Assembly: GCA_027218345.1 (NCBI GenBank)
Contig: GCA_027218345.1_3950.1
DNA length: 64,000 bases
Reading direction: 5' to 3' (one strand)
Source: a phage
Of this stretch, positions 39,170-52,395 are shown piece by piece. The notes under the pieces were generated by a model that saw only the letters and a program-made list of their open reading frames with translations, did not search any database and was not told where the DNA came from. Every line of letters starts with the position of its first letter. Position 1 is the first letter of the stretch. A program made the position numbers and the translations under genes.

Positions 39170-40069
39170 ATGTCACAAGCTGATTTGAGTTACAAAAATA
39201 TCCTGAACCATGTTTTATCCGTTGGTGAACTGCGTACTACACGAACTGGAGACGTTATCTCTGCATTTGCTCCACCACAGTTTCGTTTTGATATGCGTAC
39301 TGGTTTCCCACTCTTAACATCTAAACAGGTGTTTACAAGGCAAGTTATTGGGGAAGCTTTATGGTTCCTGAATGGTGAGAATAAACTGGGTGAACTCCGT
39401 TACCGTACTTGGGGTGAAAATGACGGAGAACGTTGGACTATCTGGTCAGATGATTTTAAACGCTGGTTAAGTTCTAATTATTCTTCTGAACAAGATTGGT
39501 TAGAGGATGCAGGTGGAAGAATCTATGGGGTTCAGTGGAGAAACTTTGAAGGCCATAACGGTTGTGTTGTAGACCAGTTAGAGACCTTAGTAACGAAGAT
39601 GAAGGGTGATATCACAGACCGTTACATGCTTGTTAATGCTTGGAATGCAGCAGATATTGCAGCAAACTCAATGGCTCTAGCACCTTGTCATGTTCTGTTT
39701 CAGATTTATATTACTAACGAGGGTGAAGTTGACTTACAATGGTATCAGCGTTCTGTAGACACCTTTTTAGGACTTCCATTTAACATTGCATCTTATGGTT
39801 TTATTCTGGAAGTTCTTTGCAAGATGACTGGATACACTCCACGATACTTGATAGGTGTCTTTGGGGATACTCAGATTTATCAGAACCATATGAAGCAGGT
39901 TTATGAACTGATGAACAATGAAGAGTTCCATGCACCTACTTTTGAGATTGGTGTTCAGCTTAACACTCTAAGTGATTTAAAACATCTTACTGCAAGTGAT
40001 TTTATTGGTGGCATTAACAATTACCAACATGCAGGAAAGATTGAAGCACCTTTGTCAGTAGGTAAGTAA
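39170..40069 (+). CDS. thyA: thymidylate synthase
   Basis: Active-site region LAPCHVLFQ and conserved TS blocks (R..RTG..., DTFLGLPFN); 299 aa. Confidence 0.8.
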   Translation: MSQADLSYKNILNHVLSVGELRTTRTGDVISAFAPPQFRFDMRTGFPLLTSKQVFTRQVIGEALWFLNGENKLGELRYRTWGENDGERWTIWSDDFKRWLSSNYSSEQDWLEDAGGRIYGVQWRNFEGHNGCVVDQLETLVTKMKGDITDRYMLVNAWNAADIAANSMALAPCHVLFQIYITNEGEVDLQWYQRSVDTFLGLPFNIASYGFILEVLCKMTGYTPRYLIGVFGDTQIYQNHMKQVYELMNNEEFHAPTFEIGVQLNTLSDLKHLTASDFIGGINNYQHAGKIEAPLSVGK

Positions 40070-40071
40070 AA

Positions 40072-40115
40072 ACAAAAAAGGCTCCCGTAAAAAGGAGCCT
40101 TAAAATTTTATTTTT
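40072..40115. terminator. bidirectional rho-independent terminator at convergent junction
   Basis: AGGCTCC-CGTAAAAA-GGAGCCT hairpin flanked by A-run upstream and T-run downstream; between plus-strand thyA and minus-strand structural block. Confidence 0.6.
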
Positions 40116-40479
40116 CAGTATTCTTTGTGTTCTTCTCAGTAATAGCTTGGAGGGCTGATACTGATTGAGCCAGATTATTCACACTGTCAGAGAATTTATC
40201 AAGAGTTTTGGTAAGTTTTGCGTTTTCACCCTTAACATTCTCTAACTGAACTTTCTGGTTCTCCATCCCTAGCTGAATCAGTCTCATGTCAGACTGTAAA
40301 TCACGAATAGCTGAATAGTTACTTTTGGAATAATTATCTAGCTGCTGTAACTTTGTTGTGACAGACACTTCTTGCTTACCACTTGAAACTTGCATAGTGG
40401 TATACATCCCAATAACACTAAAAATACCAACTACAATTGCACCAATATTATTTTTAAAAGCTTCCTCTAGCCACTTCAT
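40108..40479 (-). CDS. membrane-anchored coiled-coil protein
   Basis: N-terminal TM (IGAIVVGIFSVIGMY) then coiled coil; last gene of structural block. Confidence 0.35.
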   Translation of the reverse strand: MKWLEEAFKNNIGAIVVGIFSVIGMYTTMQVSSGKQEVSVTTKLQQLDNYSKSNYSAIRDLQSDMRLIQLGMENQKVQLENVKGENAKLTKTLDKFSDSVNNLAQSVSALQAITEKNTKNTEK

Positions 40480-40673
40480 TTATTCTCCCCCTTAAAAGCT
40501 TTTTCTAAGTTATCTACGAACTCATCATCAATAGGTGTGTCTGTTTTACTCGCAAGGTATCTTGCAAGCCTAAAGAACACTTTCTCAATCATGTATTCAC
40601 TTAGAAGGGATAAAATGAGTTTCCAGAAGAAGCTACCTAGATTTTTTAGAAGAATTGCTAGGATTGTAGGCAT
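40476..40673 (-). CDS. small membrane protein
   Basis: 65 aa, one hydrophobic helix and charged C-terminus. Confidence 0.3.
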   Translation of the reverse strand: MPTILAILLKNLGSFFWKLILSLLSEYMIEKVFFRLARYLASKTDTPIDDEFVDNLEKAFKGENK

Positions 40674-40752
40674 TTAATCACCTCATCAGCCAAGATGGTG
40701 AGAATACCCATAAAGAATATTAACACCATCTTAACAATCAGTCAACAAGGGA

Positions 40753-43143
40753 TTAAGCAGCTCTCACCCAAGCCATTAACTTGTAGAACTGGTTAGTAAC
40801 ACTAAATGCTGACCCAGAACCTGTACCACCAGTGTTACCACTGACTGTGTGGCTGTGAGCACCAATACCTACAGAGTGGGAATGGTCGCCAGCACCGCTT
40901 GTAGTACCAGACCATGTATGTGTATGGTTACCAGTTGTGTTAGTGTTAGGGAATTTATTGTCCCTTCTGTCAAGCCAGTCAAGAGTTCTCGTCTTGTTAT
41001 TGCTAACAGTTGTATAACCGTACTGAGCATCACCACCATTAACCAATAGCAGACCTAAGTGGTGAGCGTGGTTACCAGCAGCACTTGTTGTACCACTTAC
41101 AGAGTGAGTATGACCACCAGTGCTATTAGTGTTCTTCGTACCATAATCAAAAGATGAAGTGGTAGCAGAGAATCTATGGGTGTGTGATGGTAAGTTGCCA
41201 ACAGATAGCGTCACAGAATCTGAACCACCAGTTGTAGCAACATCTGAACCATTTGCTGCTGCAATTCTGATAGTTCTCCCAACACCATTGTTCAGGTACG
41301 TCCAAGTTAGACCAGGAAGTGCTGTATTAGGGTCAACATTACTGTTAAACCACGTTACGATACCTACTGGATAGATTTTGTTAAGGTCTGTAGAGTCACT
41401 TACTGCCTGTGCAATCTTCTGGTCAGTTTCTGCTTTAGTGTATGCACCAATTTCTGAAGGGGTTGGTTTATCTTGGTCTGTATAGATTTTAGACCATACC
41501 TGCTCAAAGCCATACCCATCTCGTGCTGTTCTATACCAAAAACCCCCATTTCTGTAGAGAAATTTTAACTGAACGGCTGGTGTAGAACCAAGACCCTGAA
41601 ACATATGGTAGACTAGCTGTGTTGAACCAGCAGTTTTATCCGTAACACTATACAGACCTGTTTTTGCATTCCATGCAACACCATCACCATCCTTTTCAGA
41701 AGCTGTGCCAGTAACACTTGCGAGCATATACCTAGAGTTTGCGGCAGATTGGGTATAGTATCTAGCATCTAAGTTAGAGAAGTCAGATGGTTGAACTTGA
41801 CCAGTAATGATTAGATTCTTATTAGCCTTAATCGCTGAAGGCATAAGAGTAATTTGAGTCCCAGAGTAGCTGTTGTTTAAGGCTACATCATTAGAGTTTG
41901 TGCCACCTACACCTACCCACCACCTAGATACATTCTCAGTGTCAACACCACGGATATATTGTGGAAGCCCCTGTGTTAAGTTCCTCAATACTAAGCCTTC
42001 ATTATTTGATACAATAGTCTGCACATTCACGAAAGTGTTAGACACATTAATCTTAGCAAGATTATTCAAAGTAGCTGCTGGAATATATCTAGAGTCAATG
42101 TTAGTCCAATCAGATGGTTGAACTTGACCAGTGATTTTTACACTCTTATTAAATGTAGCACCAGACGAGTTTAAGACAATTGAGGTATTGCCCTTGTAAT
42201 CGTAAAATGTGATATTGTCATTTGCATCACCTTTACCGATATACCACAGATTATTGTTTTCAACATCTTTTGCTAGGATGAACAAAGACTCATTAACAGC
42301 TTTATTTTTTAGCATGATAGCAGCAGCATTAGAGCTAACACTAACATAGTTGCTGAAGGTGTTTAAACCACTAAAAGTGTTATTCGCAGTTAACTGTGCA
42401 AACCTCTGATTAGCAACTGTCTGAGTGAAGTATCTAGCATCTAAGTTAGAGAAGTCAGAAGGCTGAACTTGACCCATGACTCTTAGTGTCTTGTTAAATG
42501 ACGCTGTTGCGTCAAGGGTTAACATTGAGCCAGTGGCATGATTGTACAGATAAACATTAGTGTTGTTTGCATTTCCCTGTCCAACATACCACGTTTGCTG
42601 GTTATTAGCATCTCTACCCTGAATATATGAAGCTCCTGCATTAGTTGCTTTCTTAAGAGTTAACTGCTCACCATCAACGACAATTGCTTGCCTAATGTTG
42701 AAGTTATTTGTTACAGCCAACCTTGCATATCTTGCATCATTCTCTTCATTAGTTCTCATCCCAAGTTCATTAGGACTTGGTTTATTCAGAGTATGATAAA
42801 CAGTTGCTGACCTTGAAGCATCTGCAATAGTTAGCCTAAGACCATTTGCGTTAATTTTAAAAGTCTTTAAAACATCACCAATATTAATCTCAGAAGAGCC
42901 TGTAGGGTCAAAGACTGCCTTGCCACCGTAAAGTAACTTAACAATTCCTAAGTCACCCTTCATAGTGCTACCAACAATCTGAACAAATCTTTCAAGTTTA
43001 AAAGATGCTAAGAAGTCTTGATAGGTCATTCGACGGTCTTCATCACCCAGCATTTCAGGTCTCTTTTTAACTCTGACATGAAGAAGGTCATCTGAACGGA
43101 TTGTATCGATTGAGTTTAATTCACTCAACTTGTAATCTGCCAT
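40753..43143 (-). CDS. tail fibre protein with three internal repeats and His-rich C-terminal tip
   Basis: 796 aa; three copies of GQVQPSD(F/W)(S/T)N(L/I)D(A/S)RY about 110 aa apart; C-terminal HxH clusters ([30 protein letters not shown]). Confidence 0.6.
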
Positions 43144-43157
43144 TATAAATTTTCCTC

Positions 43158-43180
43158 TTAAAAGGGGCTATCAAGCCCCT
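43158..43180 (-). terminator. hairpin (AGGGGCT-ATCA-AGCCCCT) between the two tail fibre genes
   Basis: 7-bp GC stem with A-run on plus side; followed by RBS AAGAGGA before 43143 start. Confidence 0.45.
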
Positions 43181-43189
43181 GTAAAGAAA

Positions 43190-44377
43190 TTAAGCTGTTC
43201 TCTGCCATACATACAGTACGAAGGATGGCTGCTCAATGTTGAAAGCTTGTCCACCACCAACACTGTTAGTGTTCCCGCTATGTGTATGCTCAGAAGAAGA
43301 AACTGTCACAGTACCATTGTGTGTATGTGAACCAATGCCAACCGTATGGCTGTGAGCACCAATACCAACCGTGTGGCTGTGGTTACCAGTCGTGTTAGTG
43401 GTAACACTGAAAGAGTGAGTGTGTGAACCAGCGACTTCACAGACAGCATCTGCTGAGTACCATGATTGGTCATTCCTTGTAGACCAAACCATTGCAGGTC
43501 TTTCCGATAGACCGCCACCTGCTTCATAGGTCAATCTGTGGTTGTGAGCACCAGCAGCACTTGTTGACCCACTACCAACGTGATTGTGGTTACCAGTTGT
43601 GTTAGTGGTCTTAGTCCCATAGTCAAAAGAGTTGGTAGTCTTAGTTCCATAATCAAAAGCTGAAATTGACACCGTTGCATTGTGGGTGTGACCACCACCA
43701 CTAAGAGACACAGAGTGAGAGTGTTGAGGCATGTTATTAACTGACAAAGTGACAGTTGAAGCACCAAATACAGAACCTGCTGGTCTTGTTTCAGAGTCAT
43801 AACCAACCAATGCTCTACCTTTTGAAACTAACTCCCAAGTTCCTCCACAAATTAAATACGTAGAAGGGTTTGCAGAGTTCATGGAAAGATGGATAGTGCC
43901 TACTGGATAAGAAGCCTGAACAGCCTTGTACAAGTTATTTACTGCTCTTGCCGTAGCATACTTATCTGCATCTTCGTTATAAAGGTTGGATGTTGTCCAG
44001 TTCTGAACATTACTCAATCCTACCTGTGCCTTAGTTGTATTGTGTGGGTTGCTCTTGTCCTGAATATGCTGTTGAACAAGATTATTAACCTCTTCTGAAG
44101 ACATAATCTGTAGATTTGCTCTTGCCTGAGCTACATTAGTAACATCTGATAAGTTATTTGCAGCAACTAACTGAAGAGCATTAATAACATTATCTAAACC
44201 AATTTGTGTTTTAGTAACGCCATGTGGGTTATTTCTTAGGCTTGAGTGTGGAGCAAGTAATTGCTCAAGAGTACATCTCTTATCCTCAATACCCTGCTTA
44301 AGATGGAAGATATCACTAAGGTCAATTGGTAAGGCTGCTTGAGGCAAGGCACTAATTTGAATTTCACCTACTGCCAT
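43190..44377 (-). CDS. tail fibre protein with His-rich tip domain
   Basis: 395 aa; repeated HxH motifs ([39 protein letters not shown]); tandem FDYGTKTTN duplication. Confidence 0.55.
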   Translation of the reverse strand: MAVGEIQISALPQAALPIDLSDIFHLKQGIEDKRCTLEQLLAPHSSLRNNPHGVTKTQIGLDNVINALQLVAANNLSDVTNVAQARANLQIMSSEEVNNLVQQHIQDKSNPHNTTKAQVGLSNVQNWTTSNLYNEDADKYATARAVNNLYKAVQASYPVGTIHLSMNSANPSTYLICGGTWELVSKGRALVGYDSETRPAGSVFGASTVTLSVNNMPQHSHSVSLSGGGHTHNATVSISAFDYGTKTTNSFDYGTKTTNTTGNHNHVGSGSTSAAGAHNHRLTYEAGGGLSERPAMVWSTRNDQSWYSADAVCEVAGSHTHSFSVTTNTTGNHSHTVGIGAHSHTVGIGSHTHNGTVTVSSSEHTHSGNTNSVGGGQAFNIEQPSFVLYVWQRTA

Positions 44378-44379
44378 TA

Positions 44380-52395
<8,016 letters not shown>

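Follow-up and report, generated by a model that had tools for sequence, protein, structure and literature searches.

The closest described counterparts of the fibre locus considered here come from the same genus or from T4. In the phage Bas63 (JohannRWettstein), cryo-EM resolved two kinds of fibre, both with collar, HxH needle and head; the long tail fibre (LTF) also contains five gp34-like beta-helix domains (Sci Adv 2025; PMC12609058). Two fibres have also been observed by cryo-EM in phage Sf14 (2025; PMC11821841). In VpaE1 the proteins gp74 and gp75 were reported in 2015 to be homologous to the T4 adhesin, with the LPS core as the receptor; the same work noted the gp37-adhesin homology of the two C-termini and the variable middle of gp75 (PMC4690856). 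Seven Fe sites are known in the T4 gp37 tip itself, for which the boundaries of the domains have been published (PMC6957217).

A two-fibre architecture with needles of the T4 gp37 HxH type is already known and, since it has been published, we do not present a new kind of system. Our additions are incremental: a fixed number of rod repeats, mosaic boundaries, a tip swap with T4-like phages, an ancient FDYGTK tandem and the lack of a detectable gp38-type chaperone. We regard it as very probable that the locus encodes two separate trimeric fibres of the Felix O1 type, with tips of the T4 gp37 type, whose host range evolves by recombination. The homology, the motif alignment, the pattern of variability and the mosaic boundaries behind this explanation are observed.

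Locus organization

The window (the whole 64 kb stretch of DNA analysed) belongs to a Felixounavirus (Felix O1-like); E. coli isolates, with 94-96% nucleotide identity, are the best of 290 phage records matching the region. Two adjacent fibre genes had been proposed and the list of open reading frames bears this out, with proteins of 796 and 395 aa encoded on the minus strand. The gene order runs from a baseplate J-like gene through a DUF2612 gene, a 100-aa gene, the short tail fibre (STF) gene, the LTF gene and two small ORFs to a convergent thymidylate synthase gene; by comparison of annotations it is identical to that of the relatives. The LTF is orthologous to Bas63 gp27 (69% identity, full length, BLASTP), VpaE1 gp75 and Sf14 gp53, and the STF to Bas63 gp26 (74% identity, full length, BLASTP), VpaE1 gp74 and Sf14 gp52, so that orthology and synteny both match the LTF/STF pair of the Bas63 gp27/gp26 type. 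Both fibre genes are annotated in relatives, the LTF as 'tail fiber protein', and the STF assignment is supported by these annotations too. In a promoter and terminator scan of positions 39900-45000, sigma-70 promoter-like sites occurred at chance level and a bidirectional terminator at 40078-40101 was the sole standout. A preprint on gene essentiality in Bas63 (PhageMaP) reports nothing on the fibre genes. The features are as follows, with the evidence in parentheses.

40753-43143, minus strand: LTF gene, 796 aa (ORF; PHROG 4277 'tail fiber protein' over the full length; BLASTP to Bas63 gp27)
42724-43143, minus strand: LTF aa 1-140, putative N-terminal baseplate-binding region and first rod domain (conservation; analogy with Bas63)
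42415-42720, minus strand: first of three LTF repeats, variable cassette C2, aa 142-243 (repeat HMM, PF20744, variability, alleles, nucleotide mosaic)
42070-42375, minus strand: second of three LTF repeats, cassette C3, aa 257-358 (repeat HMM, PF20744, variability, alleles, mosaic)
41746-42051, minus strand: third of three LTF repeats, cassette C4, aa 365-466 (repeat HMM, PF20744, variability, alleles, mosaic)
41413-41712, minus strand: LTF aa 478-577, fifth rod domain, cassette C5 (Pfam gp37_C PF12604, E 1.9e-19; 8JU3, E 2.5e-22)
40756-41382, minus strand: LTF receptor-binding tip of the T4 gp37 type, aa 588-796 (2XGF match; T4 alignment; T4 boundaries from PMC6957217)
40844-41163, minus strand: LTF tip segment comprising the head and most of the stem, shared with gp37 of the Tequatrovirus 'sutha' (88.8% nucleotide identity)
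43190-44377, minus strand: STF gene, 395 aa (ORF; PHROG 2097; BLASTP; annotations)
43949-44377, minus strand: STF aa 1-143, putative N-terminal baseplate-binding region (conservation; analogy with Bas63)
43193-43942, minus strand: STF tip of the T4 gp37 type, aa 146-395 (2XGF, E 1.4e-26 over aa 146-367; PF21939, E 3.3e-18; alignment; entropy)
43601-43657, minus strand: STF tandem FDYGTKTTN(S)FDYGTKTTN, within the ascending stem at aa 241-259 (repeat family D8)

Residues 1-140 of the LTF are nearly invariant among 120 homologues and end in a linker of 19 residues; they are assigned to baseplate binding from the corresponding domain in the Bas63 cryo-EM structure (PMC12609058). The assignment of STF residues 1-143 to the same role follows the Bas63 counterpart, and this region carries helix-turn motifs of the form NPHxxTKxQxGLxNV.

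The rod of the long tail fibre

Between its N-terminus and its tip the LTF carries tandem rod domains of about 100 aa joined by short conserved linkers, an arrangement of the PF20744 and T4 gp34 kind. PF20744 ('gp37_trimer') matches the protein in three stretches (E 3.7e-70), corresponding to three repeats of about 102 aa with pairwise identities of 30-45%. Each repeat is closed by one copy of the 15-residue motif GQVQPSD(F/W)(S/T)N(L/I)D(A/S)RY, and all three copies that had been described are present, starting at aa 224 (42430-42474, repeat 1), 339 (42085-42129, repeat 2) and 448 (41758-41802, repeat 3). A hidden Markov model of the three repeats detected no further copy in the LTF, the STF or T4 gp37, giving exactly three in the LTF; of the structural domains described for Bas63, the model picks up neither the first nor the fifth as a sequence repeat. 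Because no extra copies were found, the five domains of Bas63 are not all sequence repeats.

The AlphaFold2 model of the LTF monomer is confident in the repeat domains (pLDDT 70-90). Foldseek aligns it to T4 gp34 (4UXG/5NXH; E 1e-6, about 418 columns) at an identity of only 14%, to the phage Mu fibre (8JU3; E 6e-6) and to T7 gp17 with an r.m.s.d. of 1.9 Å. The last match involves residues 280-344 of repeat 2, which resemble the T7 gp17 pyramid domain (4A0T/4A0U) in sequence as well as in fold (65 columns). The likeness to the T4 gp34 rod is tempered by the number of units, with three copies recognizable in sequence here and five structural domains in the Bas63 study. The fifth rod domain, C5, resembles fibre protein S of phage Mu and ends in a linker of 18 residues. 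Two SNPs linked to host range in a Salmonella relative, at aa 497 and aa 534, lie in this domain (PMC6669636).

The earlier note had drawn attention to a near-identical pair of motifs of about 45 bp and had taken it to be a substrate for recombination. The identity stands (43 of 45 nucleotides shared by copies 1 and 3), although the coordinates given for the downstream copy were about 7 nucleotides off. Identical codons occupy 13 of the 15 motif positions, against just 10 of 33 same-amino-acid positions in the rest of repeats 1 and 3 (Fisher p = 3e-4). Such an excess of synonymous identity is what would favour the idea that the motifs drive unequal intragenic recombination, varying the number of rod repeats and so tuning fibre length. 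We think this very improbable, since the motif occupies the same three positions in 120 of 120 LTF homologues and the Bas63 study likewise contains no repeat-number variation. The homologues fall into only two length classes, and the longer (845-856 aa) differs from the other nowhere except in a C5 module that is about 60 aa longer. Variation in copy number, which the earlier note had proposed to look for among related phages, is accordingly rejected, with three repeats fixed in all 120 homologues. What survives of the proposal is a different kind of recombination, in which the conserved motifs bound the exchange of cassettes between phages.

Cassette exchange

Cassettes C2-C5 occur as discrete alleles that are only 30-50% identical to one another. 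There are 8-14 deeply divergent alleles per LTF cassette, C5 being the most variable with fourteen, and the 120 LTFs contain 59 combinations; several pairs of cassettes show all four allele combinations. The homologue sets were the top-scoring database matches, so allele frequencies in them are biased. The linker motifs are exactly the points at which nucleotide identity to VpaE1, ASO1B and LF110P4 jumps, from about 100% to 40-60% or back. In the comparison with VpaE1, whose fibre pair is orthologous, C2 has 100% nucleotide identity while C3, C5 and both heads differ. As judged from these alleles and mosaics, the conserved motifs at the repeat ends mark sharp boundaries between divergent cassettes that reassort.

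There is a likely precedent in the T-even phages, where, as Tetart and coworkers are said to have described in 1998, the distal fibre locus recombines at conserved 'His boxes' and thereby swaps adhesin specificity. The likeness lies in divergent receptor-binding segments bracketed by short conserved crossover motifs. Two things differ here: the partners come from different families (an Ounavirinae myovirus and Straboviridae; see below), and the same logic extends to rod cassettes bounded by the GQVQPSD...RY linkers.

Receptor-binding tips

Clusters of HxH motifs had been noticed at both C-termini. All of the quoted motifs are present, six in the LTF (aa 654, 678, 692, 740, 754 and 763, all within the last 145 aa) and nine in the STF (aa 219, 230, 264, 278, 319, 333, 342, 351 and 364), counts that were reached by none of 20,000 residue shuffles of either protein (shuffle means of 0.35 and 1.4, respectively). 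The T4 gp37 tip structure (PDB entry 2XGF) is matched by the LTF at aa 641-775 (E 1e-21; 4e-26 with a profile) and, as listed above, by the STF. In these alignments the T4 Fe sites at 883, 915, 929, 966, 980, 989 and 998 correspond to LTF 654, 678, 692, 740, 754 and 763, the seventh being absent, and to STF 219, 264, 278, 319, 333, 342 and 351, with extra boxes at 230 and 364. The LTF thus retains six of the seven T4 positions and the STF all seven plus two more, and the GxHxH arrays on the outgoing and returning strands of both proteins are in register with the seven Fe sites.

The two tips share one layout. In the LTF a collar is followed by an ascending stem (HxH 654, 678 and 692), a head at about aa 695-737 (40933-41061 in the window), a descending stem (HxH 740, 754 and 763) and a C-terminal strand of 11 residues. 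In the STF a gp10_C-type collar precedes an ascending stem (HxH 219, 230, 264 and 278), a hypervariable head at about aa 281-316 (43430-43537; entropy highest over aa 271-315), a descending stem (HxH 319, 333, 342, 351 and 364) and the strand FVLYVWQRTA. The variable head insert sits between ascending and descending His boxes in both fibres. Among homologues the heads vary, the His boxes and C-terminus are conserved and the HxH positions are invariant or nearly so. The C-terminal ...V(R/Q)R.A tail of both fibres aligns with ...IVRLA of T4, the strand that returns to the collar domain. The STF collar scores above the cutoff for PF21939 and also matches T4 gp10. At 20.7 bits the LTF collar misses the 27-bit Pfam cutoff for Gp10_C and nonetheless aligns with the STF and T4 collars, as does its C-terminal strand with that of T4. 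These alignments place in both proteins a gp10/gp11/gp12-like collar with an inserted needle and a returning C-terminal strand, a topology that is predicted from the alignment.

The similarity of the two C-termini, proposed in the earlier note together with a pairwise alignment as the check, is confirmed by that alignment: LTF 591-796 and STF 157-395 are 33% identical (E 1e-21), so the likeness exceeds shared composition. Tips of the T4 HxH type on both fibres are likewise upheld, by the 2XGF matches, the Fe-site register, the His-box-flanked head, the C-terminal strand and the Bas63 cryo-EM structure (PMC12609058). On the other side, the tips have low confidence in the monomer models (see below), and with Foldseek the STF model matches nothing in the PDB at E <= 0.001, its collar alone resembling the T4 gp10 C-domain (2FKK; r.m.s.d. 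3.9 Å, 92 columns). On the strength of the alignments, each C-terminus is truly homologous to the receptor-binding tip of T4 gp37, and by the same homology both would bind metal. The description of the tips as duplicated is not established, given 33% mutual identity and 40% between the LTF tip and T4 gp37; they are paralogous family members and not demonstrably the product of a duplication within the lineage.

The tandem FDYGTKTTN-S-FDYGTKTTN was correctly read in the 395-aa protein. It does not represent a recent duplication: the two copies differ at about four of 27 nucleotides (counted by eye) and T4 gp37 shares the tandem as a homologous stretch of 18 residues. The tandem is ancient and common to T4. 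Among 72 homologues the FDYGTK motif count ranges from zero to three per sequence.

Could the 395-aa protein be part of the baseplate structure, in the manner of T4 gp10, and not a fibre that binds a receptor? Gp10_C is its only above-threshold Pfam match, T4 gp10 chains are matched at E 7e-5 to 4e-4 and one source calls a homologue 'phage baseplate protein'. The gp10-like part is, however, limited to the collar (aa 144-220), and the remainder matches the gp37 needle and head far better (E 1.4e-26). A hypervariable head is as expected for a receptor-binding surface, and the Bas63 counterpart is a 430 Å fibre. We give this reading very little credence, slightly less than the variation in repeat number discussed above. 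That the two proteins form the proximal and distal halves of one jointed fibre, as in T4 gp34/gp37, has in its favour adjacent, co-oriented genes and an LTF rod that resembles gp34, yet both proteins separately possess a conserved region for attachment at the N-terminus and a complete tip at the C-terminus; cryo-EM of Bas63 and Sf14 reveals separate fibre sets on different baseplate proteins, and separate 43 and 63 nm fibres have already been seen in relatives, which leaves the jointed fibre fainter still as a prospect. Least credible of all, and in effect already refuted, is that the His-rich segments form linkers of low complexity or without order, in C-termini alike only in composition: G, S, T and H are abundant in them, and AlphaFold2 monomers built from shallow alignments (mean pLDDT 62.6 for the STF and 49.2 for the LTF) have low confidence in the LTF tip (25-35) and STF head (<50), but poor monomer confidence is expected of an intertwined, metal-bound trimer, the homology to the solved, folded 2XGF is position-specific (E 1e-21 to 4e-26), the His boxes stay in register with HxH (nearly) invariant across divergent homologues, and Bas63 has cryo-EM density for folded needles.

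With two separate fibres preferred, the nearest comparison is with Bas63, which shares the genus, the gene order and the two-fibre architecture, as well as six HxH motifs and one extra His in the LTF. The differences are in detail: 69% (LTF) and 74% (STF) identity, heads unrelated in sequence in both fibres, nine HxH motifs in the STF rather than seven, and an extra LTF His that forms HxHH here and HHxH in Bas63. The likeness to the T4 gp37 tip (D10-D11, 2XGF) covers the topology of collar, stem and tip, the GxHxH register, the D(L/Y)GTK tandem and the C-terminal strand. Here, however, the tips belong to single-protein fibres of 395 and 796 aa that, by Bas63 and Sf14, would be attached directly to the baseplate, whereas T4 has a four-protein fibre of 145 nm; the heads differ, and the genus Felixounavirus uses LPS only, T4 either OmpC or LPS.

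Tip exchange with T4-like phages

The LTF tip segment shared with sutha ends in two conserved boxes, FDYGTK...GGHTH and one of 12 residues. Sliding identity along sutha gp37 is T4-like, then LTF-like (41152-40880) and then T4-like again. BYEP01 and N2, at 97.8% to sutha, carry the LTF-type needle and head as well. By their sequences, these few T4-like phages with an LTF needle and head record a tip swap across families.

Chaperone

T4 gp37 requires the chaperone gp38, and gp57A as well. A tblastn search of the 64 kb window found no homologue of T4 gp38 (best E 0.2), and Felixounavirus is absent from the organism groups among the matches listed for 348 phage records matching T4 gp38. The two small ORFs downstream (65 and 123 aa) carry no chaperone signature in Pfam and PHROG searches, and no gp38-type gene of the kind encoded beside the T4 fibre gene was found. 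Tip folding must therefore differ in some respect from that in T4, which raises the modest question of how these tips fold. Membership of the fold is untouched, since a chaperone is not a structural criterion for it.

Proposed mechanism

We infer that the fibres are trimeric and bind metal, and likewise their receptor and their positions, the positions from the cryo-EM studies of Bas63 and Sf14. The two genes would produce two separate trimeric fibres, one long (796 aa) and one short (395 aa), each attached to the baseplate by its conserved N-terminal domain. In the LTF a rod of T4 gp34-like beta domains with short conserved linkers, three of them recognizable repeats, would lead to the tip. 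There the chain would exit a gp10/gp12-like collar, extend along a thin beta needle, build a small variable head and return, its conserved C-terminal strand docking at the collar. GxHxH boxes from the three chains, in both strand directions, would stack along the needle axis so that in each layer six imidazoles hold one metal ion (Fe in T4), with six layers predicted for the LTF and nine for the STF. The head would touch the receptor, probably the LPS core as in the genus. Homologous recombination at the linkers and His boxes would swap rod cassettes and heads, with T4-like phages included, and so drive host-range evolution.

Implications for host range

A further-reaching view, which we hold as no more than tentative and on balance doubtful, is that the LTF rod is a string of exchangeable specificity modules and not a passive spacer. 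Cassettes C2-C5 would reassort freely at the GQVQPSD...RY and KPTPSEIG linkers, as might fit side-on host-recognition modules or targets of host defence, and the His/metal tip of the T4 type would fold without a gp38-type chaperone and be transplantable into T4-like gp37, as in sutha, BYEP01 and N2.

Typing, biocontrol and therapy directed at Salmonella and E. coli make wide use of Felix O1-like phages, whose fibres determine host range. The practical value of the present analysis is a map of exchange points, that is, of natural junctions for host-range engineering. Candidate junctions are the His boxes flanking the head (FDYGTK...GGHTH and the 12-residue box) and the linker motifs flanking the rod cassettes. 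That the needle and head of a Felixounavirus can function on a scaffold of T4 gp37 is shown by the natural T4-like chimeras.

Genomic context

The two adjacent tail-fibre ORFs are present as the earlier note described them, and are listed here with the elements that follow.

Window 43190-44377, minus strand: short tail fibre (STF), 395 aa
Window 40753-43143, minus strand: long tail fibre (LTF), 796 aa
Window 40476-40673, minus strand: small ORF, 65 aa, directly downstream of the LTF gene
Window 40108-40479, minus strand: small ORF, 123 aa, downstream of the LTF gene
Window 40078-40101: strong bidirectional stem-loop terminator between the convergent thymidylate synthase gene (plus strand) and the fibre operon (minus strand); also annotated in phage ASO1B

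A nucleotide search with the region 40000-45000 gave matches in 290 phage records, the best being E. coli Felixounavirus isolates (LF82P1, LF110P4, ASO1B, P54, VpaE1 and others; 94-96% nucleotide identity), in which both fibre ORFs are labelled 'tail fiber protein'. The gene order is identical to that of VpaE1, ASO1B and Bas63: a baseplate J-like gene, a DUF2612 baseplate gene, a 100-aa ORF, the STF, the LTF, the two small ORFs and then the convergent thymidylate synthase and DHFR genes. An NCBI protein (P0121) that is 100% identical to the LTF is entered under Escherichia coli as a hypothetical protein; its 85.7-kb contig is evidently the genome of this phage within a bacterial assembly.

The 65- and 123-aa ORFs each carry a hydrophobic N-terminal segment, and the latter has weak coiled-coil-type Pfam matches. 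Neither gave an informative family match in Pfam or PHROGs, where both fall in groups of unknown function; they may serve in lysis or in fibre assembly. In P54 a 'holin' is annotated within the corresponding stretch. The sign of the GC skew flips at about 30 and 40 kb, coinciding with strand switches of gene blocks. No tRNA genes were found by ARAGORN across the whole 64-kb window; 22 have been reported in Felix O1, and the cluster must be located elsewhere in the genome, beyond the window.

T4 gp37-type tips

A sequence search of the PDB matched both fibres to the crystal structure of the T4 gp37 receptor-binding tip (2XGF; E 1.4e-26 for the STF and 1e-21 for the LTF, or 4e-26 using the family profile). 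HxH motifs start at residues 654, 678, 692, 740, 754 and 763 of the LTF and at 219, 230, 264, 278, 319, 333, 342, 351 and 364 of the STF, counts not reached in 20,000 shuffles of each protein. The likeness of the two C-termini was also borne out, since an alignment of these regions spanning about 250 columns has 33% identity (E 1e-21).

In T4 gp37, the sequence of which we took from a T4 genome for alignment, seven HxH boxes (883, 915, 929, 966, 980, 989 and 998) bind the needle's seven iron ions (PMC6957217). Six LTF boxes correspond one-to-one with these, the last T4 box being absent; seven STF boxes do likewise, and its two further boxes, 230 and 364, should on this alignment make the needle longer. 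Between the third box of the ascending strand and the first of the descending strand lies the counterpart of the T4 'tip' subdomain (aa 932-959), and this segment is the variable part of both fibres among homologues. Ahead of the first box lies a gp10/gp12-type collar (PF21939; E 3.3e-18 for the STF, sub-threshold for the LTF). The similar C-terminal tails of the earlier note align with the T4 C-terminal strand (aa 1010-1026), which in gp37 returns to collar domain D10. The FDYGTKTTN tandem lies at STF residues 241-259; because T4 gp37 also has an FDYGTK tandem, it is an old stem feature, present as a single copy in the LTF and in 0-3 copies in homologues.

AF2 monomer models resolved the tip of neither fibre. 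By analogy with T4, Bas63 and Sf14, the last of which has the same two fibres (PMC11821841), we infer a trimer, metal binding, the receptor and where the fibres sit. T4 gp37 needs gp38 and gp57A (PMC6957217). A gp38 homologue was not found in the 64-kb window, and a T4 gp38 search returned 348 matching phage records with no Felixounavirus among the organism groups listed.

Our homologue sets (120 LTFs and 72 STFs) are the top-scoring matches, not a balanced sample. Nine HxH boxes is the most frequent count in the STF set (49 of 72) and the range is 6 to 11, implying that needle length differs. The STF of Bas63 (gp26; L009:5500-6648) has seven, lacking two boxes that adjoin the head on the ascending strand. 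One database homologue (P0050; 281 aa) matches the first 47% of the query at 99% identity and ends in ...GQQVLLVLITTD, which resembles a 91-aa ORF in another frame of the STF gene (43531-43806, minus strand); this suggests a frameshifted or mis-sequenced STF in its contig.

The rod of the long fibre

The three GQVQPSD...RY motifs reported earlier start at LTF residues 224, 339 and 448, each closing one of three repeats of about 102 aa (cassettes C2, C3 and C4; window 41746-42720) that are 30-45% identical; an HMM built from the repeats found these three copies and no further ones. Three LTF stretches matched Pfam PF20744 'gp37_trimer' (E 3.7e-70), and the repeats matched T7 gp17 (4A0T) on sequence. 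Taken as a whole the AF2 monomer model is poor (pLDDT 49), but its three repeat domains are confidently predicted (70-90). Foldseek related the model to gp34 of the T4 proximal fibre (4UXG/5NXH; E about 1e-6), to 8JU3 from the Mu fibre (6e-6) and to T7 gp17 (rmsd 1.9 Å over 65 columns). A domain of another type occupies residues 478-577 (C5; Pfam gp37_C; Mu S-like, E 2.5e-22); it has a KP(S/T)P.E(L/I)G linker in common with the first domain (about aa 60-140).

Much of this architecture has been described. The 2015 study of VpaE1 reported homology of both fibre C-termini with the T4 gp37 adhesin, high variability in the central part of the long protein, and the LPS core as receptor (PMC4690856). 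Cryo-EM of Bas63 in 2025 revealed a 430-Å STF (gp26) with seven di-His motifs and a 630-Å LTF (gp27) with six plus one extra His and five gp34-like beta-helix domains; the tips and domains 2-5 were highly variable, repeat number was constant, and the cause of rod variability was left open (PMC12609058). In our direct comparison the Bas63 proteins are 74% (STF) and 69% (LTF) identical to those of the window, with both heads unrelated in sequence.

Cassette exchange

Conservation along the LTF is strongly banded. The N-terminus, four linkers, collar, His boxes and C-terminus are nearly invariant; the variable domains (aa 141-220, 261-340, 361-440 and 461-560) each come in 8-14 discrete alleles with only 30-50% identity to one another. 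There are 59 allele combinations among the 120 LTFs, and several cassette pairs show every one of the four possible pairings of their two commonest alleles. The LTFs come in two sizes, 783-797 and 845-856 aa, and the fifth domain alone sets these apart: the longer class (29 of 120) has in place of window 41413-41712 an alternative cassette, about 60 aa longer and without a PF12604 match. Nucleotide identity to three relatives jumps between about 100% and 40-60% at linker motifs. VpaE1 matches the window at 100% in C2, and its C3, C5 and both heads diverge; in LF110P4 it is C2 and C5 that diverge, with C3 and C4 at 97-100% identity. These observations favour an exchange of cassettes over gradual drift as the source of rod variability.

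The earlier note had proposed the motif copies as a recombination substrate. This holds for exchange between genomes, because alleles reassort and identity switches at the linker motifs, but not within the gene, where all 120 homologues keep three motifs at the same positions. Two of 45 nucleotides separate copy 1 (42430-42474) from copy 3 (41758-41802), and 13 of 15 codons are shared, whereas in the rest of the two repeats 10 of 33 codons agree where the residue is identical (p = 3e-4). Candidate causes are gene conversion and selection on the DNA as a recombination site.

A tip shared with T4-like phages

The stem and head of the LTF have a close counterpart outside the genus.

Escherichia phage sutha gp37, L001:3398-6598, minus strand: T4-like phage gene containing the counterpart of window 40844-41163

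The shared part has 88.8% nucleotide identity and 93 of 102 residues in common. Along its length sutha gp37 passes from T4-like to LTF-like and back to T4-like, and both junctions sit in boxes conserved in all three phages, one being FDYGTK...GGHTH. BYEP01 and N2 carry the same chimera (97.8% identity to sutha), and more distant versions are present in AV122 and SHBML-50-1. Since 108 of the 120 LTFs sampled carry this head type, against only about five T4-like phages, the transfer appears to have run from Felixounavirus to Tequatrovirus.

The earlier observation is thus confirmed as a whole and its interpretation essentially correct, for a known feature in a well sampled genus. With the fibre architecture already published, what this analysis adds is the cassette shuffling and the cross-family tip swap, and its incremental value is a map of the exchange junctions.
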